Positions 5,785 through 34,184 of a DNA stretch of 36,941 nucleotides are shown here, piece after piece (within the stretch, counting starts at the first letter, position 1; every line of letters starts with the position of its first letter). The notes beneath the pieces are model-generated. The model saw only the letters and a list, made by a program, of their open reading frames with translations. It ran no database searches and was not told the DNA's origin. Source of the DNA: a virus (taxonomy: Duplodnaviria > Heunggongvirae > Uroviricota > Caudoviricetes); IMG/VR virus record IMGVR_UViG_2563366846_000004, one strand, 5' to 3'. A program made the position numbers and the translations under genes.

Positions 5785-6529
5785 TGTTTACAGCCTGACA
5801 AGACTCTTTGAGCACCCAGTCAATAGCGTCTTTCCATGCCTCTGTTTCGACTGGTGGATTTTCACGCTTAACCTGTTCATAGAAGCGCACTGCTTTAACC
5901 AGTCCTTCCGGTACTACTGGTGATGGCTGTTTAGCTTCTAAATCAGCAATTCTGTCAACCACGGCATCGACAGCATCTGAAAAGCCGAACCAGTTGCTCC
6001 ACTCCGGCTCATCCCCGGTTGCTGCAAAGTACATATCTGCTAAAGCAGATTCAGCATGGTCACGCTCGTTAATGAGTTGCTCTTCGCTTTTCTCCAGTTC
6101 AGCAATACGCTTACCCCCATCCGAGATAACACCTTCGTAATACTCACGCTGCTCGTTGAGTTTTGATTTTGTCTCCTCAAGCTCAACTCTCAGCTTCCCA
6201 ACAGTAAGAGCAATATCCTCGTTCTCCTGGTCGCGGCGTTTTATGTATTGCTGGTTTCTTTCCCGTTCATCCAGCAGTGCCAGCACAGTAGCCGGATTGG
6301 CTGCGGCGATGAATTCAGCATTGGCCTGCTGTTCCATTTGGAAATCTTCATCGAAACCGCTTTCTGGATGCGCTCCTTCAATTCTGCAAATGGGAATATA
6401 TCCAGCAACTTCACGATGAATTAGCGCATAATCACCATCAAATCGGCTCTCTCCATATTCGAGCGACCACTCACCACACGTTGCTTTTTCTGCCGCTTCA
6501 CGCAGTGCCTGATAGTTAATTTCGCTCAC
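5765..6529 (-). CDS. Ea22-like coiled-coil protein, 254 aa
   Basis: Acidic coiled-coil rich sequence (ELEETKSKLNEQ, IAELEKSEEQL) and a PSPVVPEG motif; sits where lambda has ea22; family assignment is by resemblance only. Confidence 0.5.
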   Translation of the reverse strand: MSEINYQALREAAEKATCGEWSLEYGESRFDGDYALIHREVAGYIPICRIEGAHPESGFDEDFQMEQQANAEFIAAANPATVLALLDERERNQQYIKRRDQENEDIALTVGKLRVELEETKSKLNEQREYYEGVISDGGKRIAELEKSEEQLINERDHAESALADMYFAATGDEPEWSNWFGFSDAVDAVVDRIADLEAKQPSPVVPEGLVKAVRFYEQVKRENPPVETEAWKDAIDWVLKESCQAVNIDTNGD

Positions 6530-6747
6530 TTCGAACCTCTCTGTTTACTGATAAGCTCCAGATCCTCCTGGCAACTTGCACAAGTCCGACAACCCTGAAC
6601 GACCAGGCGTCTTCGTTCATCTATGGGATCGCCACACTCACAACAATGAGTGGCGGATATAGTCTGGTAGTTCAGACGACGCATTTTTATTGCTGTATTG
6701 CGCTGTAATTCTTCAATTTCTGATGCTGAATCAATGATGTCCGCCAT
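6526..6747 (-). CDS. TraR/DksA-family C4 zinc-finger protein, 73 aa (lambda Orf73-like)
   Basis: Four-cysteine motif CCECGDPI...CRTCASC; size and position match lambda Orf73. Confidence 0.7.
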   Translation of the reverse strand: MADIIDSASEIEELQRNTAIKMRRLNYQTISATHCCECGDPIDERRRLVVQGCRTCASCQEDLELISKQRGSK

Positions 6748-6845
6748 CTTTCATTAATCCCTGAATTGTTGGTTAATACGCTTGAGGGTGAATGCGAATA
6801 ATAAAAAAGGAGCCTGTAGCTCCCTGATGATTTTGCTTTTCATGT

Positions 6846-7061
6846 TCACCGTTCCTTAAAGACGCCGTTTAACATGCCGATCGCCAGGCTTAAATGAGTC
6901 GGTGTGAATCCCATCAGCGTTACCGTTTCGCGGTGCTTCTTTAGTACGCTACGGCAAATGTCATCGACGTTTTTATCCGGAAACTGCTGTCTGGCTTTTT
7001 TGATTTCAGAATTAGCCTGACGGGCAATGCTGCGAAGGGCGTTTTCTTGCTGAGGTGTCAT
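6846..7061 (-). CDS. Hypothetical small early-left protein, about 71 aa
   Basis: ORF between the orf73-like and orf63-like genes; start chosen at MTPQQEN, the track form extends to 7127. Confidence 0.4.
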   Translation of the reverse strand: MTPQQENALRSIARQANSEIKKARQQFPDKNVDDICRSVLKKHRETVTLMGFTPTHLSLAIGMLNGVFKER

Positions 7062-7137
7062 TGAACAAGCCCCATGTCGGCAAGCATAAGCACACAGAAT
7101 ATGAAGCCCGCTGCCAGAAAAATGCATTCAGTGGTTG

Positions 7138-7329
7138 TCATACCTGGTCTCTCTCATCTGCTTCTGCTTTCGCCACCATCATTTCCAGCTTTTGTGAAAG
7201 GGATGTGGCTAACGTATGAAATTCTTCGTCTGTTTCTACTGGTATTGGCACAAACCTGACTCCAATTTGAGCAAGGCTATGTGCCATCTCAATACTCGTT
7301 CTTAACTCAACAGGAGATGCTTTGTGCAT
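7138..7329 (-). CDS. Lambda Orf63-like protein, 63 aa
   Basis: Size, position upstream of orf60a/exo and a 28-nt overlap with the next gene match the lambda orf63/orf60a arrangement as I recall it. Confidence 0.5.
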   Translation of the reverse strand: MHKASPVELRTSIEMAHSLAQIGVRFVPIPVETDEEFHTLATSLSQKLEMMVAKAEADERDQV

Positions 7330-7490
7330 ACCGCCTCCCGTTTATTATTTATCTTCTCAGCCAGCCGCTGTGCTTTCAGTGGATTTCTGATAACAGAAAG
7401 GCCGGGAAATACCCAGCCTCGCTTTGTAACGGAGTAGACGAAAGTGATCGCGCCTACCCGGATATTATCGTGAGGATGCGTCATCGCCAT
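7302..7490 (-). CDS. Lambda Orf60a-like protein, 62 aa
   Basis: Position immediately downstream of exo with a 10-nt overlap. Confidence 0.45.
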
Positions 7491-8161
7491 TGCTCCCCAA
7501 ATACAAAACTAATTTCAGCCAGTGCCTCGTCCATTTTTTCGATGAACTCCGGCACCATCTCGTCAAAACTCGCCATGTACTTTTCATCCCGCTCAACCAC
7601 GACATAATGCAGTCCTTCACGCTTCATACGCGGGTCATAGTTGGCAAAGTACCAGGCATCTTTTCGCGTCACCCACATGCTGTACTGCACCTGGGCCATG
7701 TAAGCCGATTTTATGGCCTCGAAACCACCGAGCCGGAACTTCATGAAATCCCGGGAGGTAAACGGGCATTTCAGCTCAAGGCCGTTGCCGTCACTGCATA
7801 AACCATCGGGAGAGCAGGCGGTGCGCATACTTTCGTCGCGATAGATGATCGGGGATTCAGTAACATTCACGCCGGAAGTAAACTCAAACAGGGCTCTGGC
7901 GTCGTTCTCGTACTGTTTTCCCCAAGCCAGCGCCTTAGCGTTAACTTCCGGAGCCACACCGGTGCAAACCTCAGCCAGCAGGGTGTGGAAGTAGGACATT
8001 TTCATGTCAGGCCATTTCTTTCCGGAGCGGGGTTTTGCTATCACGTTGTGAACTTCTGAAGCGGTGATGACGCCGAGCCGTAATTTGTGCCATGCATCAT
8101 CCCCCTGTTCGACAGCTCTCACGTCGATCCCGGTACGCTGCAGGATAATGTCCGGTATCAT
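7481..8161 (-). CDS. exo: Lambda exonuclease (Red alpha), 226 aa
   Basis: 226 aa; sequence matches lambda Exo as I recall it almost residue for residue; followed 5' by bet with a 4-nt overlap. Confidence 0.9.
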
Positions 8162-8943
8162 GCTGCCACCTTCTGCTCAGTGGCTTTCTGTTTCAGGAAT
8201 CCAAGAGCTTTCACTGCTTCGGCCTGTGTCAGTTCTGACGAGGCGCGAATGTCGCGGCGAAATATCTGGGAACAGAGCGGCAATAAGTCGTCATCCCATG
8301 TTTTATCCAGGGCGATCAGCAGAGTGTTAATCTCCTGCATGGTTTCATCGTTAACCGGAGTGATGTCGCGTTCCGGCTGACGTTCTGCAGTGTATGCAGT
8401 ATTTTCGACAATGCGCTCGGCTTCATCCTTGTCATAGATACCAGCAAATCCGAAGGCCAGACGGGCACACTGAATCATGGCTTTATGCCGTAACATCCGT
8501 TTGGGATGCGACTGCCACGGCCCCGTGATTTCTCTGCCTTCGCGGGTTTTGAATGGTTCGCGGCGGCATTCATCCATCCACTCGGTAACGCAGATCGGAT
8601 GATTGCGGTCTTTGCGGTAAATCCGGCATGTACATGATTCATTGTCCTGCTCAAAGTCCATGCCATCAAACTGCTGGTTTTCATTGATGATGCGGGACCA
8701 GCCATCAACGCCCACCACCGGAACGATGCCGTTCTGCTTATCAGGGAAGGCGTAAATTTCTTTCGTCCACGGATTAAGGCCGTACTGGTTGGCGACGATC
8801 AACAATGCGATGAACTGCGCATCGCTGGCATCACCTTTAAATGCCGTCTGGCGAAGAGTGGTGATCAGTTCCTGTGGGTCGACAGAATCCATGCCGACAC
8901 GTTCAGCCAGCTTCCCAGCCAGCGTTGCGAGTGCTGTACTCAT
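8158..8943 (-). CDS. bet: Recombination protein Bet (Red beta), 261 aa
   Basis: 261 aa, near-identical to lambda Beta by recollection; canonical exo-bet-gam order. Confidence 0.9.
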
Positions 8944-8948
8944 CCGTT

Positions 8949-9245
8949 TTATACCTCTGAATCAATATCAGCCTGATGGTGAGCAATGGTTTCAACCATG
9001 TACCGGATGTGTTCTGCCATGCGCTCCTGAAACTCAACATCGTCATCAAACGCACGGGTAATGGCTTTTTTGCTGGCCCCGTGGCGTTGCAAATGATCGA
9101 TGCATAGCGATTCAAACAGGTGCTGGGGCAGGCCTTTTTCCATGTCGTCTGCCAGTTCTGCCTCTTTCTCTTCACGGGCGATCTGCTGGTAGTGACGCGC
9201 CCAGCTCTGAGCCTCAAGACGATCCTGAATGTAATAAGCGTTCAT
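8949..9245 (-). CDS. gam: Host nuclease inhibitor Gam, short form, 98 aa
   Basis: Sequence matches lambda GamS by recollection; the upstream extension that makes the 138-aa form in lambda is in a different frame here. Confidence 0.85.
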
Positions 9246-9320
9246 GGCTGAACTCCTGAAAATGGCTGTGAAAATATCGCCCGCGAAATGCCAGGCTGAT
9301 TAGGAAAACAGGAAAGGGGG

Positions 9321-9464
9321 TTAGTGAATGCTTTTGCTTGATCTCAGTTTCAGTATTAATATCCATTTTTTATAAGCGTCGACGGCCTCACGAAACATCT
9401 TTTCATCGCCAATAAAAGTGGCGATAGTGAATTTAGTCTGGATAGCCATAATTGTTTGATCCAT
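9321..9464 (-). CDS. kil: Kil host-killing protein, 47 aa
   Basis: Internal Met of ORF 9321..9590 preceded by AGGAG; 47 aa matching lambda Kil by recollection; overlaps cIII by 32 nt as in lambda. Confidence 0.7.
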
Positions 9465-9597
9465 TTTTTGGGACTCCTGGCTGATTAAGTATGTCGATAA
9501 GGCGTTTCCATCCGTCACGTAATTTACGGGTGATTCGTTCAAGTAAAGATTCGGAAGGGCAGCCAGCAACAGGCCACCCTGCAATGGCATATTGCAT
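9433..9597 (-). CDS. cIII: Regulatory protein cIII, 54 aa
   Basis: Hand translation of the minus strand gives [54 protein letters not shown], essentially lambda cIII; below the 60-aa cutoff of the ORF track. Confidence 0.8.
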   Translation of the reverse strand: MQYAIAGWPVAGCPSESLLERITRKLRDGWKRLIDILNQPGVPKNGSNNYGYPD

Positions 9598-9669
9598 GGT
9601 GTGCTCCTTATTTATACATAACGAAAAACGCCTCGAGTGAAGCGTAATTGGTATGCGGTAACGCCGCGC

Positions 9670-10038
9670 TCAGGCGGCCTTGATAGTCATATCATCTGAA
9701 TCAAATATTCCTGATGTATCGATATCGGTAATTCTTATTCCTTCACTACCATCCATTGGAGGCCATCCTTCCTGACCATTTCCATCATTCCAGTCGAACT
9801 CACACACAACACCATATGCATTTAAGTCGCTTGAAATTGCTATAAGCAGAGCATGTTGCGCCAGCATGATTAATACAGCATTTAATACAGAGCCGTGTTT
9901 ATTGAGTCGGTATTCAGAGTCTGACCAGAAATTATTAATCTGGTGAAGTTTTTCCTCTGTCATTACGTCATGGTCAATTTCAATTTCTATTGATGCTTTC
10001 CAGTCGTAATCAATGATGTATTTTTTGATGTTTGACAT
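9670..10038 (-). CDS. ea10: Ea10-like early protein, 122 aa
   Basis: 122 aa, between cIII and ral as lambda ea10. Confidence 0.6.
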   Translation of the reverse strand: MSNIKKYIIDYDWKASIEIEIDHDVMTEEKLHQINNFWSDSEYRLNKHGSVLNAVLIMLAQHALLIAISSDLNAYGVVCEFDWNDGNGQEGWPPMDGSEGIRITDIDTSGIFDSDDMTIKAA

Positions 10039-10220
10039 CTATTCATATCCTCATAGATAAAAAATCGCCCTCACACTGGAGGGCAAAGAAGATTTCCAAT
10101 AATCAGAACAAGTCGGCTCCTGTTTAGTTACGAGCGACATTGCTCCGTGTATTCACTCGTTGGAATGAATACACAGTGCAGTGTTTATTCTGTTATTTAT
10201 GCCAAAAATAAAGGCCACTA

Positions 10221-10421
10221 TCAGGCAGCTTTGTTGTTCTGTTTACCAAGTTCTCTGGCAATCATTGCCGTCGTTCGTATTGCCCATTTATCGACATATT
10301 TCCCATCTTCCATTACAGGAAACATTTCTTCAGGCTTAACCATGCATTCCGATTGCAGCTTGCATCCATTGCATCGTTTGAATTGTCCACACCATTGATT
10401 TGTATCAATAGTCGTAGTCAT
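10221..10421 (-). CDS. ral: Restriction alleviation protein Ral, 66 aa
   Basis: 66 aa, Cys-containing; matches lambda Ral by recollection and position. Confidence 0.75.
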   Translation of the reverse strand: MTTTIDTNQWCGQFKRCNGCKLQSECMVKPEEMFPVMEDGKYVDKWAIRTTAMIARELGKQNNKAA

Positions 10422-10634
10422 ACGGATAGTCCTGGTATTGTTCCATCACATCTTGAGGATGCTCTTCGAACTCTTCAAATTCTTCTTCCATATATCACCT
10501 TAAATAGTGGATTGCGGTAGTAAAGATTGTGCCTGTCTTTTAACCACATCAGGCTCGGTGGTTCTCGTGTACCCCTACAACGAGAAATCGGATAAACTCT
10601 ATTCACCCCTACAGAGAGCAAAAGAGAAACGCCG

Positions 10635-11216
10635 ATGAACAACTCATGGTGGCAGGAACTAATGCATTTTTTCCTGCAAGGAATGACACTTAAACAGTTG
10701 ATTCATATGCTAATCATCCTGATCATATTGATTATTGTTATGCCGGTAAGCGTAAAAGAATGGATAAACCTGCATAATCCAGAAATCCTTCCTCATTACT
10801 GGATGTATTACATCCTGTTGTTTTGCGTTAGCTATGTGCTTAACGGCGTTGTTAATTCCGCTTATCACGCTGTGACTGAAAGAATTGAGGTATTCGCTGC
10901 TCAGAAGCGCAAATCTAAAGAAGAAAAATATGTGCAAGATTTGTTTGATTCGTTAACTCTTGGAGAAAGAGCGTATTTGGCATTCGCTGTAGCCGCTAAT
11001 AACCAGCTACAAACGGAAAAGGGCGCTCATGAATCAATTTCATTGCTCAAAAAAGGACTCCTCGTTCGAAGGCCTCCTGCTGTTGGATATCCTGATACCG
11101 ACCGTTTCGTTATCCCTGAAAGCTATAGACATGAGTGCTACATTAGGTTTGCCGGGAAGGCAGACAGCCTTATGGATGAACTTATCGCTCAGGATAAGCA
11201 TGGCAAAAACAAGTAA
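10635..11216 (+). CDS. sieB: Superinfection exclusion protein B, membrane protein, 193 aa
   Basis: Rightward gene embedded between ral and N as lambda sieB; hydrophobic N-terminal segments; AT-rich. Confidence 0.7.
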   Translation: MNNSWWQELMHFFLQGMTLKQLIHMLIILIILIIVMPVSVKEWINLHNPEILPHYWMYYILLFCVSYVLNGVVNSAYHAVTERIEVFAAQKRKSKEEKYVQDLFDSLTLGERAYLAFAVAANNQLQTEKGAHESISLLKKGLLVRRPPAVGYPDTDRFVIPESYRHECYIRFAGKADSLMDELIAQDKHGKNK

Positions 11217-11232
11217 TTAGCAAATGAATTTA

Positions 11233-11505
11233 TCATCTCGCCGTCAGTTGTTTTGATTTCCGGTAGCCTGCCGCGTAAAGAGCTACGTTCGGAAGACAAG
11301 TTGAACCTTCATATTTTCTGGTCAACGTTGTCAGAGTTATCACTTCTGCTCTCATTGCTGGTTTGAGCTTGCATTGCAAGACCACTCGTGAAGGGGTTGG
11401 CCTGTGTAGCTTGTCGGAGCTGATCGCCTCCTGACTTTGCAGATTTGCGCGACGAGCTCTACGGCGAGAAGCTGCGGTGCCTTTAAATTCTGTTTTTCTG
11501 GACAT
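11233..11505 (-). CDS. N: N-type transcription antitermination protein, about 90 aa
   Basis: Arginine-rich motif GTAASRRRARRANLQ near the N-terminus; start at internal Met preceded by GGGAGGA; sits between pL/nutL and sieB. Confidence 0.7.
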   Translation of the reverse strand: MSRKTEFKGTAASRRRARRANLQSQEAISSDKLHRPTPSRVVLQCKLKPAMRAEVITLTTLTRKYEGSTCLPNVALYAAGYRKSKQLTAR

Positions 11506-11604
11506 GGATTCCTCCCGAATAAACTTTGGCGATGCAATCTCGAAGCTCCTCCTGAGACGGTTGCTTCGGCATTGCATCCCACAGCTTATGTGGTTGGGTG
11601 ATCT

Positions 11605-11648
11605 GGCTTTTCAGCCACGTAGTCGAGAGTCGACGTTGTTTAAAGAGC
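11605..11648 (-). promoter_or_regulatory. nutL: Putative nutL: boxA-like GCTCTTTAA plus boxB-like hairpin GGCUGAAAAGCC on the leftward transcript
   Basis: On the minus strand, boxA-like at 11640-11648, a 23-nt spacer, then a stem-loop at 11605-11616; a parallel arrangement lies just after cro (nutR). Confidence 0.45.
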
Positions 11649-11907
11649 CTGCCAGTCTGTTCCATTTGGCTTCCAGCGTCCTGCTGACGGTTAAATAGTA
11701 CGATATGTACTTTACAAGATCAATACAATTTGTTGTAAGTTGGCGTGGTTTTTTATAACGCTTTGTATTTAATAGTGTTGTTTTTTAGCGTGGATGTATT
11801 GCCTCGGCGATGTAAGGAGAGATCAGAATTGCGTGGTTTAGTGGGTTGCATCTATTTATTTTTCAATAAATATAATTGGTTATGTGTTTTTAGGTGGGCG
11901 AACGTGA

Positions 11908-11936
11908 GGCAAAGAAAACCCGGCGCTGAGGCCGGG
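11908..11936 (-). terminator. Rho-independent terminator ending the cI-proximal operon (analogous to lambda tImm)
   Basis: Perfect stem CCCGGC/GCCGGG (11919-11924 and 11931-11936), 6-nt loop, followed on the minus strand by GTTTTCTTT. Confidence 0.55.
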
Positions 11937-11941
11937 TTGTA

Positions 11942-12694
11942 TTATGCTGCAAGTCTCTTAACCCAAGTCTCTCTTTTGGAGAATGGTAGAACTTGGCTTG
12001 ATTCATGGAAGAGTAAGGAGAGTTGTTGCATTTGATCACCAATTGCTTCGCTGTCTATAACAACAAATCTGTTGTTATACTCCTCACTTGAAGCTTTAAG
12101 ATCAATTAGTTTCCCAAGCAATGAGTAAGCACTATTCCAGCTTCCTCCGTGTTTCACGCTTGATGTAAAAACGTATTTAGGTATGTCGGTTTTTATTGTT
12201 ACAGGGACGGTAATTTGATGTCCACTCAAGCCATATACGTTTTCACGAAGAGAAAGTGCGTCTCTAAGCTCTGTGTGATATAGATAATCAATAACCATAC
12301 TTTCAAACTTTTCAGCTTGAACTGGCTGATACCAGTCTAACGACAAAGTTGATGCGAGTATACCAGCTCTAATTATGTTCGATGTAATCGCACCGACATC
12401 CTTTTCTGTTGCCCAAGCAATGATTTCTCCTCGAGCATTGAGTTCTGCGCCTTCTTTAAGCAGTAATTGTCGTATCTCATCAAGTCGTTTTTTGGTAAGC
12501 GAGATCCCTCTTGCCTCCATATTCATTAAGGCATCGCATCTGTCACTAACTAAATACCTACCATTGACTTCACGGATAAAGGCACCGACATGCTCTCCAT
12601 CATCACAGTAAGTGAATGGACTGATAATTCTCAAGGTCTTGCCTATTGGATGGCATTCGAAACCTAGTTGTGAGATCACTGTTGAGCACATCAT
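11942..12694 (-). CDS. Uncharacterized protein, 250 aa; second gene of the cI-linked two-gene operon in the rexAB position
   Basis: ATG overlaps the stop of the upstream gene (ATGA); AT-rich; no transmembrane segment or motif that I recognise; followed by a terminator. Confidence 0.6.
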   Translation of the reverse strand: MMCSTVISQLGFECHPIGKTLRIISPFTYCDDGEHVGAFIREVNGRYLVSDRCDALMNMEARGISLTKKRLDEIRQLLLKEGAELNARGEIIAWATEKDVGAITSNIIRAGILASTLSLDWYQPVQAEKFESMVIDYLYHTELRDALSLRENVYGLSGHQITVPVTIKTDIPKYVFTSSVKHGGSWNSAYSLLGKLIDLKASSEEYNNRFVVIDSEAIGDQMQQLSLLFHESSQVLPFSKRETWVKRLAA

Positions 12695-13248
12695 ATTCCA
12701 AACCCCATTTGCCCCGACTCATCTTCAAGCGGTAAAGGTATTCTCCCAGAGTAAGTTATGTTCAGATGTTTACAGAAGTAATTCCAATACCCTACCAGGT
12801 CATCTGGGTTTATGTCATCTTCGATTGGAAACGCTATTCTATCACTATAGTATCCAGCTTCTTCATAGTATACATGGTAGTGAGCACCGTAAATGATATC
12901 TTGGTACTTCGGATGATCGACCTTGTAACTATTCGTGTGTTTGTCAAAGTGATAGGTATCTACCGCGAAAACCCTCTTGTTATGATAGAAAGCAATAATA
13001 TTTATTTTAGGGTAAGAAATCGGGTCATCAGGTTCTGAATCCTGATCTGGTTTCCATTTCAGTTCAAACTTTAGCCCTTGTATAGGTATACAATCCTCAT
13101 CCAAGGGGATGATATGGGCTTGTAGCCACATATCAGAGCGACTTGGTTTCTGTTTCCATTTAACGCCAGAAAAGTTAACTATTTTTTTACAATAAAGTAC
13201 TTTATCAACTTCTACTTGGCTTGGCTGATAATCATCTATTTTTGCCAA
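12691..13248 (-). CDS. Uncharacterized acidic protein, about 185 aa; first gene of the cI-linked operon
   Basis: Starts 39 nt downstream of the cI stop on the same strand with no intervening hairpin; start codon appears to be TTG at 13248 with a weak upstream AGGGCGG, next in-frame ATG is 39 codons downstream; no recognisable motif. Confidence 0.55.
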   Translation of the reverse strand: MAKIDDYQPSQVEVDKVLYCKKIVNFSGVKWKQKPSRSDMWLQAHIIPLDEDCIPIQGLKFELKWKPDQDSEPDDPISYPKINIIAFYHNKRVFAVDTYHFDKHTNSYKVDHPKYQDIIYGAHYHVYYEEAGYYSDRIAFPIEDDINPDDLVGYWNYFCKHLNITYSGRIPLPLEDESGQMGFGI

Positions 13249-13287
13249 TGTTTACCGCCCTGTAAATTGTAGATAAAAGTGGTTTCA

Positions 13288-13947
13288 TCACCCAAACGTC
13301 TCTTCAGGCCATTGGCTGGCGATAACTTTCCCCACAACGGAACAACTCTCATTGCATGGGATCATTGGGTATTGTGGGTTTAGTGGCTGTAGAAACACCT
13401 GACCGCTATCCCTGATCAGTTTCTTGAAGGTAAATTCATCACCACCAAGTCTGGCTATGCAGAAATCGCCGGGCTCAACAGCTTGCTCAGGGTCAACCAG
13501 AATTAACATCCCGTCAGGAAAGCTGGGTTTGGAACCTGTTGGTGCGGTCATTGAGTTACCTTCAACCTCAAGCCAGAATGCAGAGTCACTGGCTTTTTTG
13601 GTTGTGCTTACCAATCTCTCCGCATCGCCTTTGGTAAAGGTTCTGAGTTCTGGAGAGAACATCCCAGCCTGAACATGAGAAAAAACAGGGTACTCATATT
13701 GTTTTTTAACTGGGGCCGATGAGTATTCGCCAACAGGTGAAAATGTCCCGTCGTGGTTGAATGATATGTTATCAATACCAAGGTATTTAAACACCACACC
13801 AATATCACTAAGAGATGGATGACGAGATCCGCGCAACCAGTGTCCAATCCCACCCTGCGTCATACCTAGCTCTTCGGCTAACTTCTCTTGAGTTATGCCG
13901 AGCTCTTTCATTCTGGATCTAGCCAGTTCATACCATTTCATTTTCAT
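13288..13947 (-). CDS. cI: cI repressor, S24 LexA-like, with a lambda-type C-terminal domain and a divergent N-terminal HTH domain
   Basis: C-terminal roughly 100 residues match lambda cI by recollection; N-terminal HTH ([21 protein letters not shown]) differs from lambda; start at internal Met of the track ORF. Confidence 0.85.
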
Positions 13948-14058
13948 GTCCTTATTATTACGCTCTGTACTGGAACCATCCATGCACAATGTGTATTTTT
14001 ACTTGTATTCGCAAAGTACATATTGTATTTTTTTATTCGTGTTTACTATGGAGGGCAT
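13948..14058. promoter_or_regulatory. Divergent cI/cro control region (oR, pRM, pR) with dyad-symmetric candidate operators
   Basis: Dyads CACAATGTG (about 13985-13993), TACTTGTATTCGCAAAGTA (14000-14018) and GTACATATTGTA (14016-14027); a related GTACGATATGTAC lies upstream of N at 11698-11710. Confidence 0.45.
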
Positions 14059-14274
14059 ATGAGCAACCTACGAAAATATCGAGAGTCACTGAATATCTCT
14101 CAAACAACACTTGCTAAGGCAGTTGGATGCACACAGGGAGCTATCGGACATTGGGAATCTGGTCGTCGCTTCCCAGACCTTAAAACATGCCGTGCTCTTG
14201 TTGCGTGCCTAAACAAGTTAGGCGCAAAAGTCAGTCTTGATGACGTGTTCCCGCCGGAACACAAAGCCGCTTAA
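14059..14274 (+). CDS. cro: Cro-like HTH repressor, 71 aa
   Basis: ATG preceded by GGAGGG; HTH motif QTTLAKAVGCTQGAIGHWESG; divergent from cI. Confidence 0.7.
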   Translation: MSNLRKYRESLNISQTTLAKAVGCTQGAIGHWESGRRFPDLKTCRALVACLNKLGAKVSLDDVFPPEHKAA

Positions 14275-14284
14275 TAAGCGGATC

Positions 14285-14329
14285 CGCTCTTTGTAACAAC
14301 GGACATTCGTCCTACGTCGCTGAAAAGCG
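14285..14329 (+). promoter_or_regulatory. nutR: Putative nutR: boxA-like CGCTCTTTG plus boxB-like hairpin UCGCUGAAAAGCGA
   Basis: boxA-like at 14285-14293 immediately after the cro stop; stem-loop at 14316-14329 sharing the core GCUGAAAAGC with the nutL hairpin. Confidence 0.45.
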
Positions 14330-14415
14330 AGTTCCAAGATATCTGACCAACTAAGGCCATATGCGTTTCCACGCATACCTTTCAACTAACTATTCACTAT
14401 TGGAAATCTTAAGAA

Positions 14416-14712
14416 ATGGAAAGAACAAGTTACAGCAAACTATCACAGCGTGACGTTGATCGCGCAGAAACAGATTTACTTATCAATCTGTCAGCTATTA
14501 CCCAGCGCGGTCTGGCAAAGATGATTGGCTGTCATGAATCGAAGATAAGCAGAACGGACTGGAGATTTATTGCTTCGGTCTTGTGTGCTTTCGGAATGGC
14601 ATCAGACATCAGTCCGATTAGCAGGGCTTTTAAGTATGCGCTTGATGGACTCACCAATAAAAAACGCCCGGCGGCAACCGAGCGTTCTGAACAAATCCAG
14701 ATGGAATTCTGA
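14416..14712 (+). CDS. cII: Transcriptional activator cII, 98 aa
   Basis: C-terminal LTNKKRPAATERSEQIQMEF matches lambda cII by recollection; N-terminal part divergent. Confidence 0.8.
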   Translation: MERTSYSKLSQRDVDRAETDLLINLSAITQRGLAKMIGCHESKISRTDWRFIASVLCAFGMASDISPISRAFKYALDGLTNKKRPAATERSEQIQMEF

Positions 14713-14744
14713 GGTCATTACTGGATCAATCCACAGGAGTCATT

Positions 14745-15644
14745 ATGACAAATACAGCAAAAATACTCAACTTCTGCAGAGGTAACTTTGCCAAACAGGA
14801 GCGTAATGTGGCAGATCTCGATGATGGTTACGCCAGACTATCAAATATGCTGCTTGAGGCTTATTCAGGCGCAGATCTGACCAAGCGACAGTTTAAAGTG
14901 CTGCTTGCCATTCTGCGTAAAACCTATGGATGGAATAAACCAATGGACAGAATCACCGATTCTCAACTTAGCGAGATTACAAAGTTACCCGTCAAACGGT
15001 GCAATGAAGCCAAGTTAGAACTCGTCAGAATGAATATTATCAAGCAGCAAGGCGGCATGTTTGGACCAAATAAAAACATCTCAGAATGGTGTATCCCTCA
15101 AAACGAGGGAAAATCCCCTAAAACGAGGGATAAAACATCCCTCAAATTGGGGGATTGCTATCCCTCAAAACAGGGGGACACAAAAGACACTATTACAAAA
15201 GAAAAAAGAAAAGATTATTCGTCAGAGAATTCTGGCGAATCCTCTGACCAGCCAGAAAACGACCTTTCTGTGGTGAAACCGGATGCTGCAATTCAGAGCG
15301 GCAGCAAGTGGGGGACAGCAGAAGACCTGACCGCCGCAGAGTGGATGTTTGACATGGTGAAGACCATCGCGCCATCAGCCAGAAAACCGAATTTTGCAGG
15401 GTGGGCTAACGATATCCGCCTGATGCGTGAACGTGACGGACGTAACCACCGCGACATGTGCGTGCTGTTCCGCTGGGCATGCCAGGACAACTTCTGGTCC
15501 GGTAACGTGCTAAGTCCGGCCAAACTCCGCGACAAGTGGACCCAACTCGAAATCAACCGTAACAAGCAACAGGCAGGCGTGACAGCTAGCAAACCAAAAC
15601 TCGACCTGACAAACACAGACTGGATTTACGGGGTGGATTTATGA
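14745..15644 (+). CDS. O: Replication initiator O, 299 aa
   Basis: 299 aa; contains the ori iterons internally; near-identical to lambda O by recollection. Confidence 0.9.
   Translation: MTNTAKILNFCRGNFAKQERNVADLDDGYARLSNMLLEAYSGADLTKRQFKVLLAILRKTYGWNKPMDRITDSQLSEITKLPVKRCNEAKLELVRMNIIKQQGGMFGPNKNISEWCIPQNEGKSPKTRDKTSLKLGDCYPSKQGDTKDTITKEKRKDYSSENSGESSDQPENDLSVVKPDAAIQSGSKWGTAEDLTAAEWMFDMVKTIAPSARKPNFAGWANDIRLMRERDGRNHRDMCVLFRWACQDNFWSGNVLSPAKLRDKWTQLEINRNKQQAGVTASKPKLDLTNTDWIYGVDL
15092..15230 (+). repeat. ori: Replication origin: four roughly 19-bp iterons followed by an AT-rich stretch, inside O
   Basis: Iterons TATCCCTCAAAACGAGGGA, AAATCCCCTAAAACGAGGGA, AACATCCCTCAAATTGGGGGA, CTATCCCTCAAAACAGGGGGA at about 15092-15178, then A-rich 15179-15230. 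Confidence 0.8.
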
Positions 15645-16342
15645 AAAACATCGCCGCACAGATGATTAACTTTGACCGTGAGCAGATGCGTCGGATCGCC
15701 AACAACATGCCGGAACAGTACGACGAAAAGCCTCAGGTACAGCAGGTAGCGCAGATCATCAATGGTGTGTTCAGCCAGTTACTGGCAACTTTCCCGGCGA
15801 GCCTGGCTAACCGGGACCAGAACGAACTGAACGAAATCCGCCGCCAGTGGGTTCTGGCTTTCCGGGAAAACGGGATCACCACAATGGAACAGGTTAACGC
15901 AGGAATGCGCGTAGCCCGTCGGCAGAATCGACCATTCCTGCCATCACCCGGGCAGTTTGTTGCATGGTGCCGGGAAGAAGCATCCGTTATCGCCGGACTG
16001 CCAAACGTCAGCGAGCTGGTTGATATGGTTTACGAGTATTGCCGGAAGCGAGGCCTGTATCCGGATGCAGAGTCTTATCCGTGGAAATCGAACGCGCACT
16101 ACTGGCTGGTTACCAACCTGTACCAGAACATGCGGGCCAATGCGCTGACTGACGCGGAATTACGACGCAAGGCTGCCGATGAACTGACCTGTATGACAGC
16201 GCGAATTAACCGTGGTGAGACGATACCTGAACCAGTAAAACAACTTCCTGTCATGGGCGGCAGACCTCTAAATCGTGTTCAGGCGCTGGCGAAGATCGCA
16301 GAAATTAAAGCTAAGTTAGGACTGAAAGGAGCAAGTGTATGA
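15641..16342 (+). CDS. P: Replication protein P (helicase loader), 233 aa
   Basis: 233 aa, overlaps the O stop; matches lambda P by recollection. Confidence 0.9.
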   Translation: MKNIAAQMINFDREQMRRIANNMPEQYDEKPQVQQVAQIINGVFSQLLATFPASLANRDQNELNEIRRQWVLAFRENGITTMEQVNAGMRVARRQNRPFLPSPGQFVAWCREEASVIAGLPNVSELVDMVYEYCRKRGLYPDAESYPWKSNAHYWLVTNLYQNMRANALTDAELRRKAADELTCMTARINRGETIPEPVKQLPVMGGRPLNRVQALAKIAEIKAKLGLKGASV

Positions 16343-16629
16343 CGGGCAAAGAGGCAATTATTCATTACCTGGGGACGCATAATAGCTTCTGTGCGCCGGA
16401 CGTTGCCGCGCTAACAGGCGCAACAGTAACCAGCATAAATCAGGCCGCGGCTAAAATGGCACGGGCAGGTCTTCTGGTTATCGAAGGTAAGGTCTGGCGA
16501 ACGGTGTATTACCGGTTTGCTACCAAGGAAGAACGGGAAGGAAAGATGAGCACGAACCTGATTTTTAAGGAGTGTCGCCAGAGTGCCACGATGAAACGGA
16601 TATTGGCGGTATATGGAGTTAAAAGATGA
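16339..16629 (+). CDS. ren: Ren protein, 96 aa
   Basis: 96 aa, overlaps the P stop; lambda Ren-like. Confidence 0.75.
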   Translation: MTGKEAIIHYLGTHNSFCAPDVAALTGATVTSINQAAAKMARAGLLVIEGKVWRTVYYRFATKEEREGKMSTNLIFKECRQSATMKRILAVYGVKR

Positions 16630-16654
16630 CCATCTACATCACTGAGCTAATAAC

Positions 16655-16687
16655 AGGCCTGCAGGTAATCGCAGGCCTTTTTATTTG
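16655..16687 (+). terminator. Rho-independent terminator between ren and ninB (tR2-like)
   Basis: Stem AGGCCTGC/GCAGGCCT with 8-nt loop followed by TTTTATTT. Confidence 0.5.
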
Positions 16688-16702
16688 GGGGAGAGGGAAG
16701 TC

Positions 16703-17143
16703 ATGAAAAAACTAACCTTTGAAATTCGATCTCCGGCACATCAGCAAAACGCTATTCACGCAGTACAGCAAATCCTTCCAGACCCAACCAAACCAATCGT
16801 AGTAACCATTCAGGAACGCAACCGCAGCTTAGACCAAAACAGGAAGCTATGGGCCTGCTTAGGTGACGTCTCTCGTCAGGTTGAATGGCATGGTCGCTGG
16901 CTGGATGCAGAAAGCTGGAAGTGTGTGTTTACCGCAGCATTAAAGCAGCAGGATGTTGTTCCTAACCTTGCCGGGAATGGCTTTGTGGTAATAGGCCAGT
17001 CAACCAGCAGGATGCGTGTAAGCGAATTTGCGGAGCTATTAGAGCTTATACAGGCATTCGGTACAGAGCGTGGCGTTAAGTGGTCAGACGAAGCGCGACT
17101 GGCTCTCGAATGGAAAGCGCGATGGGGAGATCGGGCTGCATGA
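16703..17143 (+). CDS. ninB: NinB recombination protein, 146 aa
   Basis: Start MKKLTFEIRSP preceded by a G-rich SD; lambda NinB-like by recollection. Confidence 0.8.
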   Translation: MKKLTFEIRSPAHQQNAIHAVQQILPDPTKPIVVTIQERNRSLDQNRKLWACLGDVSRQVEWHGRWLDAESWKCVFTAALKQQDVVPNLAGNGFVVIGQSTSRMRVSEFAELLELIQAFGTERGVKWSDEARLALEWKARWGDRAA

Positions 17144-30233: not shown

Positions 30234-30581
30234 ATGGTGACGAAAACCATCACTGAACAGCGTGCGGAAGTACGTATTTTTGCCGGTAATGATCCGGCTC
30301 ATACCGCCACAGGCAGCAGCGGGATTTCCTCGCCAACACCGGCACTGACGCCCCTGATGCTGGATGAAGCCACCGGGAAACTGGTGGTCTGGGACGGACA
30401 GAAAGCCGGTAGTGCGGTTGGCATACTGGTACTGCCGCTTGAAGGCACAGAGACGGCGCTGACGTATTACAAGTCGGGAACCTTTGCGACGGAGGCAATC
30501 CACTGGCCTGAAAGTGTGGATGAACACAAAAAGGCCAACGCCTTTGCTGGCAGTGCCCTGAGTCACGCGGCGCTGCCGTAA
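30234..30581 (+). CDS. D: Head decoration protein D, 115 aa
   Basis: Lambda gpD-like (NDPAHTATG, TPLMLD, YKSGTF); AGGAGG upstream. Confidence 0.85.
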   Translation: MVTKTITEQRAEVRIFAGNDPAHTATGSSGISSPTPALTPLMLDEATGKLVVWDGQKAGSAVGILVLPLEGTETALTYYKSGTFATEAIHWPESVDEHKKANAFAGSALSHAALP

Positions 30582-30638
30582 CACGTTATCAGGCCACCGC
30601 GGTGGCCTGACTGATTTCTGAATGAAAGGAACTGATTT

Positions 30639-31667
30639 ATGGGATTGTTTACGACCCGCCAGTTACTCGGTTATACCGAACAAAAAGTTAAATTTCGTGC
30701 GCTGTTTCTGGAGCTGTTTTTCCGCCGTACGGTGAATTTCCATACCGAAGAGGTGATGCTGGACAAAATTACCGGAAAAACGCCGGTGGCGGCCTATGTC
30801 TCCCCGGTTGTTGAAGGAAAAGTGCTGCGTCATCGTGGTGGTGAAACCCGCGTGTTGCGTCCGGGCTACGTCAAGCCGAAACACGAATTTAATTACCAGC
30901 AGGCGGTTGAGCGCCTTCCTGGTGAAGATCCATCTCAACTGAATGATCCGGCTTACCGCCGTCTGCGTATCATTACCGATAACCTCAAACAGGAAGAGCA
31001 CGCGATTGTCCAGGTGGAAGAAATGCAGGCGGTAAATGCTGTGTTGTATGGCAAATACACCATGGAAGGAGACCAGTTCGAGAAAATTGAGGTCGATTTT
31101 GGCAGGTCGACGAAGAATAACATCACTCAGGGTAGTGGTAAGGAGTGGTCAAAACAGGATCGTGACACGTTCGATCCTACACATGATATTGACCTCTACT
31201 GCGACCTGGCCAGCGGTCTTGTGAATATTGCCATTATGGACGGTACCGTCTGGCGTCTTCTGAATGGTTTTAAGCTGTTCCGCGAAAAACTGGATACCCG
31301 TCGCGGTTCAAATTCTCAACTCGAAACGGCAGTGAAAGATCTGGGCGCAGTGGTGTCCTTCAAGGGGTATTACGGCGATCTGGCCATTGTGGTGGCGAAA
31401 ACGTCTTATATAGCAGAAGACGGTATCGAAAAACGTTATCTTCCAGATGGCATGCTGGTTCTGGGGAATACTGCTGCAGATGGGATCCGTTGTTACGGTG
31501 CCATTCAGGATGCTCAGGCGTTGTCCGAAGGTGTGGTGGCCTCTTCCCGTTATCCGAAACACTGGCTGACGGTAGGGGATCCCGCCCGTGAATTTACCAT
31601 GACGCAGTCCGCGCCGCTGATGGTGTTGCCGGACCCGGATGAGTTTGTGGTGGTACAGGTGAAATAA
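30639..31667 (+). CDS. E: Major capsid protein E, 342 aa
   Basis: Lambda gpE-like throughout by recollection (PGYVKPKHE, KLDTRRGSNS, TGDPAREFTM, SAPLM). Confidence 0.9.
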   Translation: MGLFTTRQLLGYTEQKVKFRALFLELFFRRTVNFHTEEVMLDKITGKTPVAAYVSPVVEGKVLRHRGGETRVLRPGYVKPKHEFNYQQAVERLPGEDPSQLNDPAYRRLRIITDNLKQEEHAIVQVEEMQAVNAVLYGKYTMEGDQFEKIEVDFGRSTKNNITQGSGKEWSKQDRDTFDPTHDIDLYCDLASGLVNIAIMDGTVWRLLNGFKLFREKLDTRRGSNSQLETAVKDLGAVVSFKGYYGDLAIVVAKTSYIAEDGIEKRYLPDGMLVLGNTAADGIRCYGAIQDAQALSEGVVASSRYPKHWLTVGDPAREFTMTQSAPLMVLPDPDEFVVVQVK

Positions 31668-31675
31668 TCCGTGAG

Positions 31676-31706
31676 CGGGGGCGAAATGCCCCCGTGTCTT
31701 TTTTCA
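31676..31706 (+). terminator. Hairpin with a U-tract directly after the major capsid gene (candidate attenuator or terminator)
   Basis: Perfect 7-bp stem CGGGGGC/GCCCCCG, loop GAAAT, followed by TGTCTTTTTTCA. Confidence 0.45.
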
Positions 31707-31718
31707 CAGGGGGCTGAT

Positions 31719-32093
31719 ATGGCAACGAAAGAGCAAAATCTGAAACGGCTTGATGAACTGGCCCTGATTCTGGGGCGTGAGCCGGATATATCCGGGAGTG
31801 CCGCAGAGATAGCGCAGCGGGTGGCAGAATGGGAAGAGGAAATGCAGTCATCCGGCGATGATGTACAGGTTATGAATATGGATATCCGGGAGCGGGAAAC
31901 CGCGGCTCATGATGTTCGTGAGGAAACATCCGGCGCGTTAACGCGCATCAGAGTTCTGACCTGCCTCCATCTCTGTGGCGTTGATGGTGAAACGGGGGAA
32001 TCCGTTGAGCTTGCGGATGTTGGTCGGGTGATTCTGATTATGTCCTCAGATGCAAAAACACACGTTGATGGTGGAATGGCTGTTTATGCGTGA
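31719..32093 (+). CDS. FI: DNA packaging protein FI-like, about 124 aa
   Basis: Position between E and FII; acidic N-terminal region; start at ATG 31719. Confidence 0.6.
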   Translation: MATKEQNLKRLDELALILGREPDISGSAAEIAQRVAEWEEEMQSSGDDVQVMNMDIRERETAAHDVREETSGALTRIRVLTCLHLCGVDGETGESVELADVGRVILIMSSDAKTHVDGGMAVYA

Positions 32094-32439
32094 TTTTCAG
32101 AATGCCTTTGATGCCGCCCTTGCCGGGGTGGACAGTACGATTGTTGAAGTGATGGGCATCAGTGCGCAGTTCACCTCCGGTGCACAGCGTGGCGGCGAGG
32201 TTCATGGCGTTTTTGACGATCCGGAGTCGCTGGGTTTTGCCAGTAGTGGGATCCGTATTGAAGGAAGTAACCCGTCATTATTTGTGCTTACGGATACGGT
32301 TTGTGCTGTACGGCGTGGTGACACGCTGACCATTAACGGCGAGATGTTCTGGGTGGACCGTGTTTCTCCGGATGACGGAGGGAGTTGTTATCTCTGGCTC
32401 AACCGGGGGCAACCACCTGCCGCCAGCCGTCGCCGCTGA
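32086..32439 (+). CDS. FII: Head-tail joining protein FII, 117 aa
   Basis: Lambda FII-like (GVFDDPE, GDTLTI, FWVDRVSPDDGGSC); ATG overlaps the FI stop. Confidence 0.8.
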   Translation: MRDFQNAFDAALAGVDSTIVEVMGISAQFTSGAQRGGEVHGVFDDPESLGFASSGIRIEGSNPSLFVLTDTVCAVRRGDTLTINGEMFWVDRVSPDDGGSCYLWLNRGQPPAASRRR

Positions 32440-32450
32440 AAGGGGGATGT

Positions 32451-33029: not shown

Positions 33030-33421
33030 AACATACTGAATTCCGTGCAGCCGTACTGGATGCACTGGAAAAACATGACACCGGGGCGACGCTTTTTGAT
33101 GGTCGCCCCGCTGTTTTTGATGAGGCGGATTTTCCGGCAATTGCCGTTTATCTCACCGGCGCTGAATACACGGGCGAAGAGCTGGACAGCGATACCTGGC
33201 AGGCGGAGCTGCATATTGAAGTTTTCCTGCCTGCTCAGGTGCCGGATTCAGAGCTGGATTCGTGGATGGAAAGCCGGATTTATCCGGCGATGAGCGATAT
33301 CCCGGCACTGTCAGATTTGATCACCAGTATGGTGGCCAGTGGCTATGACTACCGGCGCGACGATGATGCGGGCCTGTGGAGTTCAGCCGATCTGACTTAT
33401 GTCATTACCTATGAAATGTGA
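33026..33421 (+). CDS. U: Tail terminator protein U, 131 aa
   Basis: Near-identical to lambda gpU by recollection. Confidence 0.85.
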
Positions 33422-33428
33422 GGACGAT

Positions 33429-34169: not shown

Positions 34170-34184
34170 TCCGGAGAGTCAGCG

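Follow-up and report, generated by a model that had tools for sequence, protein, structure and literature searches.

The closest described relatives of the locus examined here are VT2-Sakai/VT2-Sa (AP000422, AP000363; Miyamoto 1999, Fattah 2000), Nil2 (AJ413274), the Stx1-converting phage and Stx2 phage II (AP005153, AP005154). Fattah et al. [quoted passage not shown] The GenBank records AP000422 and AP005153 likewise annotate operators, PRM, PR, the CII site and nut sites. Mosaicism of lambdoid repressors at the level of domains is established (PMC3202840). Specifically, the 933W repressor joins an HK022-like N-terminal domain to the C-terminal domain of H-19B (PMC3202840), while the epsilon34 repressor carries a VT2-Sa-like N-terminal domain (~50%) and a lambda-like C-terminal domain (~80%) (PMC2629481 and alignment). 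In its N-terminal domain the epsilon34 repressor was placed closest to VT2-Sa, Nil2 and phage L, and the operator WTACRAWWTGTAT was proposed (PMC2629481). Foreign immunity cassettes in a lambda backbone are also represented by the lambda imm21 hybrids (DE3), in which lambda homology resumes at 38591 inside cII.

We analysed a window of 36,941 nucleotides, the stretch of DNA presented above from the IMG/VR virus record IMGVR_UViG_2563366846_000004. Its immunity region is very probably a complete and intact switch of a lambda-like E. coli prophage, with the VT2-Sa type in place of lambda's own (Table 1). Gene order is common to the window and lambda (NC_001416), as are the hinge and C-terminal domain of CI, the tail of cII, oop, the O/P module and a terminator island behind the rex slot. 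With cI and cro that agree at 99-100% with their counterparts in VT2-Sakai, Nil2, the Stx1-converting phage and Stx2 II, the cassette is evidently the common VT2-Sa immunity type, first described in the Shiga-toxin phage VT2-Sakai ~25 years ago, and as such nothing new. VT2-Sa-type immunity is accordingly its proper name, with no new type required. As a discovery the locus amounts to little; it illustrates clearly how lambdoid phages evolve by modules, through exchanges at the domain boundary of cI and at a conserved oop segment in cII.

Table 1 Features of the immunity region and its flanks (positions in the window)
Feature	Position	Strand	Basis
sieB-like superinfection exclusion gene	10635..11216	+	Pfam SieB, E 2.5e-22
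N antiterminator, 90 aa from MSRKTEF, not lambda-type	11233..11505	-	Pfam N_peptide, E 9.7e-33
Putative nutL: boxA GCTCTTT 11642-11648, ~25 nt spacer, boxB GGCTGAAAAGCC 11605-11616	11605..11648	-	Pattern search
Left operator oL (predicted)	11696..11770	.	Mapped from operators annotated in AP005153
oL1 TAGTACGATATGTACTT	11696-11712		Part of oL
oL2 CAATACAATTTGTTGTA	11721-11737		Part of oL
oL3 TATAACGCTTTGTATTT	11754-11770		Part of oL
Island 90% identical to lambda 35708-35826 (oL3 to rexB end)	11817..11938	-	blastn
Two cargo genes downstream of cI, occupying the rexA/rexB slot	11942..13248	-	ORF list
cI ORF	13288-13947	-	ORF list; placed as in the first-pass annotation
cI hinge and C-terminal part, lambda-type	13288..13698	-	blastn/alignment to lambda, Pfam, PDB
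Non-lambda (VT2-Sa type) N-terminal part of cI: helix-turn-helix domain and upper hinge	13699..13947	-	Alignment, Pfam
Right operator oR (predicted)	13956..14030	.	Mapped from AP005153 and AP000422 annotations
oR3 TATTACGCTCTGTACTG	13956-13972		Part of oR
oR2 ATGCACAATGTGTATTT	13982-13998		Part of oR
oR1 AAGTACATATTGTATTT	14014-14030		Part of oR
cro, 71 aa, HTH_3 protein, not lambda-Cro-type	14059..14274	+	Pfam, blastp
Putative nutR: boxA GCTCTTT 14286-14292, ~25 nt spacer, boxB CGCTGAAAAGCG 14318-14329	14286..14329	+	Pattern search
cII ORF	14416-14712	+	ORF list; placed as in the first-pass annotation
cII body, codons 1-78, 21/HK022/HK97/H-19B type	14416..14649	+	Pfam, tblastn, blastp, pattern search
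cII tail (LTNKKRPAATERSEQIQMEF), lambda-type	14650..14712	+	blastn, alignment
oop antisense RNA gene, overlapping the cII 3' end	14655..14770	-	Promoter and terminator scan; near-identity to lambda 38596-38711
Replication gene O, lambda-type; start of right-hand lambda-like backbone	14745..15644	+	

From YEYPVFSHV to its end, CI is identical to lambda CI at 135 of 136 residues, the sole change being W129L. Pfam Peptidase_S24 was matched in this part (E 1.1e-28), which is also covered by matches to the lambda repressor structures PDB 3bdn (E 2.6e-96), 8gmu and 1f39; the cleavage site Ala94-Gly95 and the residues Ser132 and Lys176 have lambda A111-G112, S149 and K192 as their counterparts in the alignment. 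The C-terminal part has the S24 peptidase fold and oligomerisation surface, and from its near-identity with the lambda domain we infer that CI would undergo RecA-stimulated self-cleavage and bind its operators cooperatively. The N-terminal domain and hinge, on the other hand, share 16 of 82 residues with lambda (19.5%). Pfam HTH_3 was matched at residues 11-58 (E 1.9e-10), and the domain is 100% identical to that of the Stx1 phage and Nil2 and 98.8-100% identical to that of VT2-Sakai (98.8% for record AP000363). The longest cI ORF reaches 13989; ATG 13947 and ATG 13941 are the candidate starts, the latter lying 7 nt past an AAGGA motif. Cro, also an HTH_3 protein (E 4.2e-12), gave no blastp match to lambda Cro; over its 71 aa it is 100% identical to Cro of VT2-Sakai and the Stx1 phage and 69% identical to that of phage L.

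The first-pass annotation had described a lambda-type cI C-terminal domain joined to a non-lambda N-terminal domain and cro, and had expected a distinct immunity specificity. The domain assignments were borne out by these comparisons, and so was the divergence of the operators from those of lambda; a newly created specificity was not, cI and cro being those of the known VT2-Sakai/Nil2/Stx1/Stx2 II type. Full-length identity of cI and cro to one described type is literally what was found, and that type is itself mosaic relative to lambda. Compared with the window, VT2-Sakai, Nil2, the Stx1 phage and Stx2 phage II have at most one changed residue in the cI C-terminal domain (135 or 136 of 136 agreeing), a cro that is 100% identical, and the same gene order. 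Breakpoints were mapped by alignment to lambda, and comparison with phage 21 and HK97 showed the immunity to be unlike either. Phage 21 immunity was rejected since its cI is foreign over the full length, including the C-terminal domain (36% identical), its cro is essentially unrelated and its N and operators also differ; HK97 was rejected as it carries lambda cI and cro. Lambda immunity itself was rejected on the N-terminal domain, on cro and on operator half-sites that are not of the lambda type TATCACCGC.

Six 17-bp operators are predicted in two triplets, with a consensus of ~AARTACAW-N-WTGTAYTT. A matrix trained on oL ranked oR1, oR3 and oR2 at 1, 5 and 11 of 36,925 window positions and, reciprocally, one trained on oR ranked oL1, oL3 and oL2 at 2, 6 and 7 of the same 36,925. 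The earlier proposal of GTAC-containing dyads as operators, quoted at 14016-14027 and 11698-11710, holds in that both dyads are exactly placed, lie inside oR1 (14014-14030) and oL1 (11696-11712) and belong to six cross-validating, non-lambda sites; GTAC itself is present in only 4 of 12 half-sites, where AC is the invariant core and TAC occurs in 9 of 12. Centre-to-centre spacings are 26 and 32 bp in oR, matching the 25 and 33 bp of the oL arm and differing from the 20-24 bp of lambda, as does the operator sequence, while the distance between oL and oR is ~2.3-2.4 kb in both phages. Relative to the Stx1 phage (AP005153), no base is changed in oL1 or the oR triplet, and a single base is changed in each of oL2 and oL3; the oR sites also agree across the VT2-Sakai, Nil2, Stx1 and Stx2 II group. 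The best match of the window matrix in lambda, at 35759, was discarded as chance: it has one good half-site only, which is lost at the homologous window position.

Putative PRM and PR overlap oR, and the centre of oR2 is placed ~43 bp upstream of the cI start when 13947 is taken as the start. Lambda oR2 lies at -42 relative to PRM. A simple sigma-70 scan of the window did not flag PR, PRM or PL, so the proposed promoter positions are taken from the GenBank annotations and from analogy. The two putative nut sites share one common layout and, by analogy, would be expected to act as such, and the nutR/PRE layout is annotated at the same places in VT2-Sakai and the Stx1 phage. By analogy with lambda, we propose that CI places a non-lambda helix-turn-helix head on three oL and three oR sites 2.3 kb apart, and that its lambda-type hinge and C-terminal domain would provide dimerisation, cooperative and long-range oligomerisation and RecA-stimulated Ala-Gly self-cleavage by a Ser/Lys dyad. 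Cro would be expected to target the same operators, and the prophage would be heteroimmune to lambda.

The near-complete identity of the C-terminal domain with that of lambda CI raises the possibility that the repressor uses its hinge and C-terminal domain to engage lambda-immunity repressors functionally, in mixed dimers or in mixed cooperative and looping contacts, making the two types partly cross-immune or mutually destabilising. Hollis and colleagues reportedly obtained mixed dimers of repressors with different heads in the laboratory in 1988. The operators argue against such cross-talk: the lambda operator matrix scored -1.6 to -11.7 at the six window sites compared with 13.5 to 22.4 at lambda's own, the reverse scan with the window matrix on lambda was also poor, and lambda CI binds VT2-Sa operators with a micromolar apparent Kd only (PMC10742460). 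Mixed dimers would moreover be expected to weaken repression rather than confer immunity, and the 215-fold drop in lambda plating reported for a Nissle 'repressor' clone concerns cII, not cI. We therefore regard this reading as unlikely, and give the same low weight to its corollary that co-resident lambda and VT2-Sa prophages could form mixed repressor complexes which couple their stability and induction. If true, such complexes might explain an old and poorly understood report of VT2-Sa/lambda cross-immunity; that cross-immunity would in turn soften the claim of a distinct specificity. Lambda and VT2-Sa repressor types are both common in E. coli.

At the DNA level, the 3' portion of cI (13288-13698) is 93.4% identical to lambda 37227-37637, and the match ends abruptly at 13698/13699 (lambda 37637), at Tyr101 in the hinge. 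Between the C-terminal domains of the window and lambda there are 26 synonymous differences and one non-synonymous difference, a ratio which indicates purifying selection on a functional domain. This strong selection could be taken to mean that no recombination took place, with both cI genes descending from one ancestor, the C-terminal domain being kept by selection and the N-terminal domain evolving fast. Such a history is very improbable: a DNA identity of 93% gives way to background over a handful of bases, the C-terminal domain is diverged by only ~6.6% at its synonymous sites too, which selection at the protein level cannot account for, and the identities of N- and C-terminal domains (47% and 80% to epsilon34, 19.5% and 99% to lambda) are incompatible with a single tree. 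A junction inside cI, as had been suggested for both cI and cII, is thus well supported as a sharp break in the DNA. In the 933W and epsilon34 repressors, too, the exchange lies at the boundary between the N-terminal DNA-binding and C-terminal protease-oligomerisation parts, with other partners and other levels of identity.

The immunity region is widespread. The 1.6 kb from 13200 to 14800 was found at 100% DNA identity in phages ev017, ev207, PhiR57_1 and PhiR63_2 and in E. coli Nissle 1917 and ATCC 25922, and at least 80% of it was found in 629 of 5426 complete E. coli genomes. Shared by all of them, including the copy in Nissle 1917 ('prophage 3', at icd), are the lambda-type cII tail, oop, the start of O and the cI-adjacent cargo gene. 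The Nissle 1917 copy, with a truncated integrase and an IS element, is defective, so that some copies of the cassette reside in non-inducible prophages. Recent recombination in this prophage alone, creating a new immunity specificity, is scarcely credible and already refuted by the comparisons, for although the junctions are sharp relative to lambda and sit in a lambda-like backbone, phages sequenced from 1999 on already carry cI and cro at 99-100% identity, the 1.6 kb recurs unchanged in many phages and genomes, and the C-terminal-domain alleles of cI group by immunity type (8 nt differences to VT2-Sakai, 27 to lambda).

This grouping makes the cI junction older than the spread of the family. 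We propose that the mosaic arose by homologous recombination at conserved stretches common to lambdoid phages, the cI junction most plausibly being an ancient hinge exchange present in all members of the VT2-Sa immunity family. Either direction of the cI domain exchange is compatible with the data.

In the switch area, only 13287-13698 and 14650-17143 match lambda DNA. The second match, at 97.3% DNA identity, begins with the cII tail at a junction that is again abrupt: window 14649/14650, codon 78/79, corresponds to lambda 38591, where the classical imm21 substitution seen in phage DE3 also ends on its right side. Over its whole length CII shares 43% identity with lambda CII, and the last 20 residues are the same in both. 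Pfam Phage_CII (PF05269) was matched at residues 1-92 (E 7e-34), and the lambda CII structure PDB 1xwr was matched as well (E 9e-10). The body belongs to the same allele family as that of imm21/DE3 (87% identity over the whole protein) and is also paired with lambda cI and cro in HK97. Inside the start of cII the minus strand carries, at 14438->14425, a CII-binding repeat of the form TTGC-N6-TTGT (TTGCTGTAACTTGT), with TAAGAT 13 nt beyond it. CII is a normal orthologue, likely to activate PRE by way of this repeat at the start of its own gene. As a common 21/HK022/HK97/H-19B allele that keeps the lambda-like site at PRE, the cII body is not an immunity determinant and falls outside immunity specificity; the junction inside cII proposed in the first-pass annotation is confirmed, a role of the cII body in immunity specificity is not supported. 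The Nissle 1917 'phage repressor' gene reported to protect against lambda is the window's cII gene, which alters how that result is to be read; the 'pr' clone corresponds to window 14370-14739.

The cII junction lies 5 bp past the terminator of the leftward oop antisense RNA, recognised by its promoter, its terminator and its identity to lambda. Its Po promoter (TTGAGT-17-CATAAT, 14770->14742) is located at the start of O, and its terminator stem (14688->14661, then a T run) is located inside the cII 3' end. An Rfam search of the window returned the cIII thermoregulator only, with no oop match. The VT2-Sakai-type phages differ at this point, their cII tail ...DEITKKKSPAATEDFKQIDMQF being followed by HK022-like orf48, O and P, whereas in the window tail, oop, O and P are all of the lambda type; more broadly, the tail KKKSPAATEDFKQIDMQF accompanies HK022- or P22-like O and P in VT2-Sakai, the Stx1 phage and HK97, and in the window the lambda tail accompanies lambda O/P. 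The cII junction is therefore best placed at the boundary of a conserved oop segment. More specifically, the 3' end of this segment would be where a VT2-Sa-type cassette was fused to a lambda-type oop-O-P replication module. The last 20 cII codons travel with the replication module and are equally conserved because the opposite strand encodes the oop RNA and its terminator.

Outside the switch, the backbone is lambda-like, as had been stated, at 96-97.6% identity across the flanking blocks: 97.6% from exo to ral, 97.3% over oop, O, P, ren and ninB and 96% in the tail genes. The O-P stretch has 51 nt differences from lambda in 1598 bp, and by inspection two residues differ between the O translations. 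The left edge of the non-lambda substitution was placed by blastn at 10614/10615 (lambda 34480). N, the nut sites and sieB differ from those of lambda; N is 42% identical by blastp to HK97 N, with the same C-terminal end, while VT2-Sakai has another N gene. The lambda-like island behind the rex slot contains an intrinsic terminator (11938->11917), positioned like the end of the cI-rex transcript in lambda. Lastly, lambda rexAB is replaced by two genes that are not lambda-like and lie outside the switch, at 12691-13248 (185 aa) and 11942-12694 (250 aa); VT2-Sakai-type phages carry other cargo downstream of cI. The pair matched Pfam DUF1828, weakly DUF6978, and the PADLOC models PDC-M24B (E 4.7e-10) and PDC-M24A (E 4.8e-4).

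Around cI, cro and cII the window holds an intact VT2-Sa-type immunity switch within an otherwise lambda-like backbone. Blastn comparison with lambda (NC_001416) identified the window as a lambda-like prophage with five matched stretches, and 10615-14649 was found to be entirely non-lambda except for two short islands (see the table below). The stretch 13200-14800 was 100% identical in phages ev017, ev207, PhiR57_1 and PhiR63_2, as well as in E. coli Nissle 1917 (prophage at icd), ATCC 25922 and other strains, and at least 80% of it was present in 629 of 5426 complete E. coli genomes. The first-pass annotation had proposed that junctions inside cI and cII, together with non-lambda operators, gave rise to a distinct immunity specificity; the junctions and operators were borne out, but the mosaic region is of a long-known and very common type, not a new one. 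The finding was already known from the literature on VT2-Sa CI, its operators and mosaic lambdoid repressors. Domain-level mosaicism of these repressors is established, and the 933W repressor combines an HK022-like N-terminal domain with an H-19B C-terminal domain (PMC3202840). Clade I in another study unites lambda CI with the CI proteins of Eru2 and Eru3 Stx phages, VT2-Sakai among them, which share 61% identity overall (PMC8951638).

Features of the switch region and backbone, in window coordinates
Feature	Window	Strand	Lambda	Identity	Sequence or motif	Basis
exo to ral	6481-10614		30347-34480	97.6%		blastn
short island	11817-11938		35708-35826	90%		blastn
cI 3' part island	13287-13698		37226-37637	93.4%		blastn
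cII 3' end, O, P, ren, ninB	14650-17143		38591-41084	97.3%		blastn
lambda tail genes	32311-36941			96.4%		blastn
sieB	10635-11216	+				ORF list, Pfam
N	11233-11505	-				ORF list, Pfam
cargo gene	11942-12694	-				ORF list, Pfam
cargo gene	12691-13248	-				ORF list, Pfam
cI	13288-13947	-				ORF list, Pfam
cro	14059-14274	+				ORF list, Pfam
cII	14416-14712	+				ORF list, Pfam
O	14745-15644	+				ORF list, Pfam
putative nutL	11605-11648	-			boxA GCTCTTT, ~25 nt spacer, boxB core GCTGAAAAGC	pattern search
putative nutR	14286-14329	+			boxA GCTCTTT, ~25 nt spacer, boxB core GCTGAAAAGC	
oL1 (putative)	11696-11712				TAGTACGATATGTACTT	
oL2 (putative)	11721-11737				CAATACAATTTGTTGTA	
oL3 (putative)	11754-11770				TATAACGCTTTGTATTT	
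oR3 (putative)	13956-13972				TATTACGCTCTGTACTG	
oR2 (putative)	13982-13998				ATGCACAATGTGTATTT	
oR1 (putative)	14014-14030				AAGTACATATTGTATTT	

As suggested from the sequence alone, the C-terminal part of cI is lambda-type and the N-terminal part is not. From YEYPVFSHV to the C-terminus 135 of 136 residues are those of lambda CI, the sole change being W129L, and only 16 of 82 residues (19.5%) are identical in the N-terminal domain and upper hinge. Nucleotide alignment showed an abrupt step from background to 93% identity at window 13698/13699, corresponding to lambda 37637 in the hinge, the codon for Tyr101 of lambda CI, ten residues upstream of the Ala111-Gly112 cleavage site (lambda residue numbering). 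The shared part differs from lambda at 27 nucleotides, 26 of them synonymous, and homology stops at 13287, one base beyond the cI stop codon, where the rexA/rexB slot begins (blastn). The N-terminal domain is 100% identical to those of Nil2, the Stx1-converting phage, Stx2 II and many Stx2a phages, and 98.8% identical to that of VT2-Sakai. A single tree with unequal rates was ruled out, since the N- and C-terminal domains are 19.5% and 99% identical to lambda, against 47% and 80% for the outgroup repressor of epsilon34. Alleles of the C-terminal domain group according to immunity type (8 nt differences between the window and VT2-Sakai, 27 between the window and lambda, 13 between lambda and HK97), and the hinge exchange is thus old and a property of the whole family rather than of this prophage.

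Overall, the repressor consists of a non-lambda DNA-binding head joined to a lambda-type hinge and C-terminal domain. From its match to lambda, the C-terminal part can be expected to support dimer formation, cooperative binding, looping between oL and oR, and self-cleavage stimulated by RecA. High homology of its CI to lambda CI in the C-terminal dimerisation region, six operators and cross-immunity with lambda are attributed to VT2-Sa in the citation of Fattah et al. 2000 within PMC10742460; lambda CI bound VT2-Sa operators with only micromolar apparent affinities (PMC10742460). Functional cross-talk between lambda-type and VT2-Sa-type repressors via their common C-terminal domain would be the only less ordinary reading of the sequence, and it is improbable.

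The cro gene was likewise confirmed to differ from that of lambda: lambda Cro gave no blastp match to its product, which belongs to Pfam class HTH_3. It is 100% identical across Nil2, the Stx1-converting phage, Stx2 II, the Stx2a phages and VT2-Sakai, and 69% identical to cro of phage L, an outgroup. The two GTAC-containing dyads noticed at first pass lie exactly at 14016-14027 and 11698-11710. Six putative operators, three each at oL and oR, were mapped from the GenBank annotations of VT2-Sakai and the Stx1 phage. Their half-site consensus is approximately AARTACAW, with AC invariant and TAC in 9 of 12 half-sites. Among 36,925 window positions, an oL-only matrix ranked oR1, oR3 and oR2 at 1, 5 and 11, and an oR-only matrix ranked oL1, oL3 and oL2 at 2, 6 and 7. 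The two arms match in centre-to-centre spacing, oR having 26 and 32 bp and oL 25 and 33 bp, and oL1 and oR1 are 2318 bp apart, compared with 2407 bp in lambda. That these are not lambda's operators was evident from a six-operator lambda matrix, which scored them at -1.6 to -11.7 against 13.5-22.4 at lambda sites. A related operator, WTACRAWWTGTAT, has been proposed for the related epsilon34 repressor (PMC2629481). Lambda operators are spaced at 20-24 bp, against 25-26 and 32-33 bp here; given this wider spacing despite a practically identical cooperativity domain, the cooperatively binding pair of sites is not obvious.

Annotations of the cI start conflict (13941-13989, minus strand). RefSeq and AP005153 use ATG 13983 (231 aa), which would place oR3 and the putative PRM within the coding sequence, while AP000422 uses ATG 13941 (217 aa), 7 nt past an AAGGA motif; ATG 13947 would suit a leaderless PRM transcript, as in lambda. 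As in lambda, the first cII codons overlap a predicted CII-binding repeat, TTGCTGTAACTTGT (14438->14425, minus strand), with TAAGAT 13 nt beyond it (pattern search). The terminator at 11938->11917, within the island 11817-11938, is the positional counterpart of the lambda cI-rex transcript end.

The lambda-type C-terminus proposed for cII was also found, the last 20 residues being identical at 43% overall identity to lambda CII. Identity begins inside cII at window 14650, or lambda 38591 (blastn, alignment); in a four-way alignment the window sequence agrees with VT2-Sakai and the Stx1 phage as far as ...GCGCTTGATG and with lambda thereafter. Scans of the strand opposite the cII 3' end revealed a promoter at 14770->14742 (TTGAGT-17-CATAAT) and, at 14688->14661, a strong terminator with a T run behind it. 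These are the Po promoter and the terminator of lambda's oop antisense RNA, which places the junction 5 bp beyond the oop 3' end. In the alignment, as inspected by eye, both types share a well-conserved oop segment interrupted by no more than scattered mismatches. In VT2-Sakai, the Stx1 phage and HK97 the cII tail is KKKSPAATEDFKQIDMQF, and the replication genes linked to it are HK022- or P22-like; in the window a lambda tail is joined to lambda O and P. The cII/oop junction is a crossover where the conserved oop segment ends, through which this immunity cassette became joined to replication genes of lambda type, the tail being conserved because the same DNA encodes oop RNA and its terminator. 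Lambda homology restarts at the same coordinate, 38591, in DE3, a laboratory lambda imm21 hybrid, which makes the cII junction the classical right-hand limit of the imm21-type substitution. The cII body is the widespread 21/HK022/H-19B/HK97 allele (88-97% identical over 78 aa, tblastn), and full-length cII is 82-87% identical to those of HK97 and DE3 (blastp). Since HK97 combines this allele with lambda cI and cro, the cII body, earlier counted towards the distinct specificity, is not a determinant of it.

The rexA/rexB slot right downstream of cI is filled by two overlapping genes, of 185 and 250 aa (11942-13248, minus strand). They match a PADLOC candidate defence pair (PDC-M24A, weakly, E 4.8e-4; PDC-M24B, E 4.7e-10), Pfam DUF6978 (weak) and DUF1828, and PHROGs 2017 and 1960, of unknown function. 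The pair may serve as a defence cargo that the prophage expresses on one transcript with cI. The 90-aa N protein is 42% identical overall to the 127-aa HK97 N, with an arginine-rich N-terminus in common and an identical C-terminal end, CLPNVALYAAGYRKSKQLTAR, and seems to be a mosaic or to have been shortened internally. The lambda cIII thermoregulator element (RF01804; 9552-9610, minus strand, 88.5 bits) was the sole Rfam family above threshold in the window.

In Nissle 1917 (NZ_CP022686, 15735-17340) the same prophage lies beside icd, where its integrase is truncated and an ISEc52 element has inserted; this copy is defective and lacks the recombination genes left of sieB, whereas the window retains exo, bet, gam and cIII. 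Its 'phage repressor (pr, EcN_1294)' of prophage 3, cloned in pUC19, was reported to lower plating of lambda and Stx phages more than 200-fold (PMC5987069). The cloning primers map to window 14370-14739 and the qPCR primers to 14613-14671; the clone thus carries cII and the transcribed oop region, not cI. Its effect is better read as CII over-expression or as an effect of the oop region resembling the plasmid-borne inhibition of PMC3349717.
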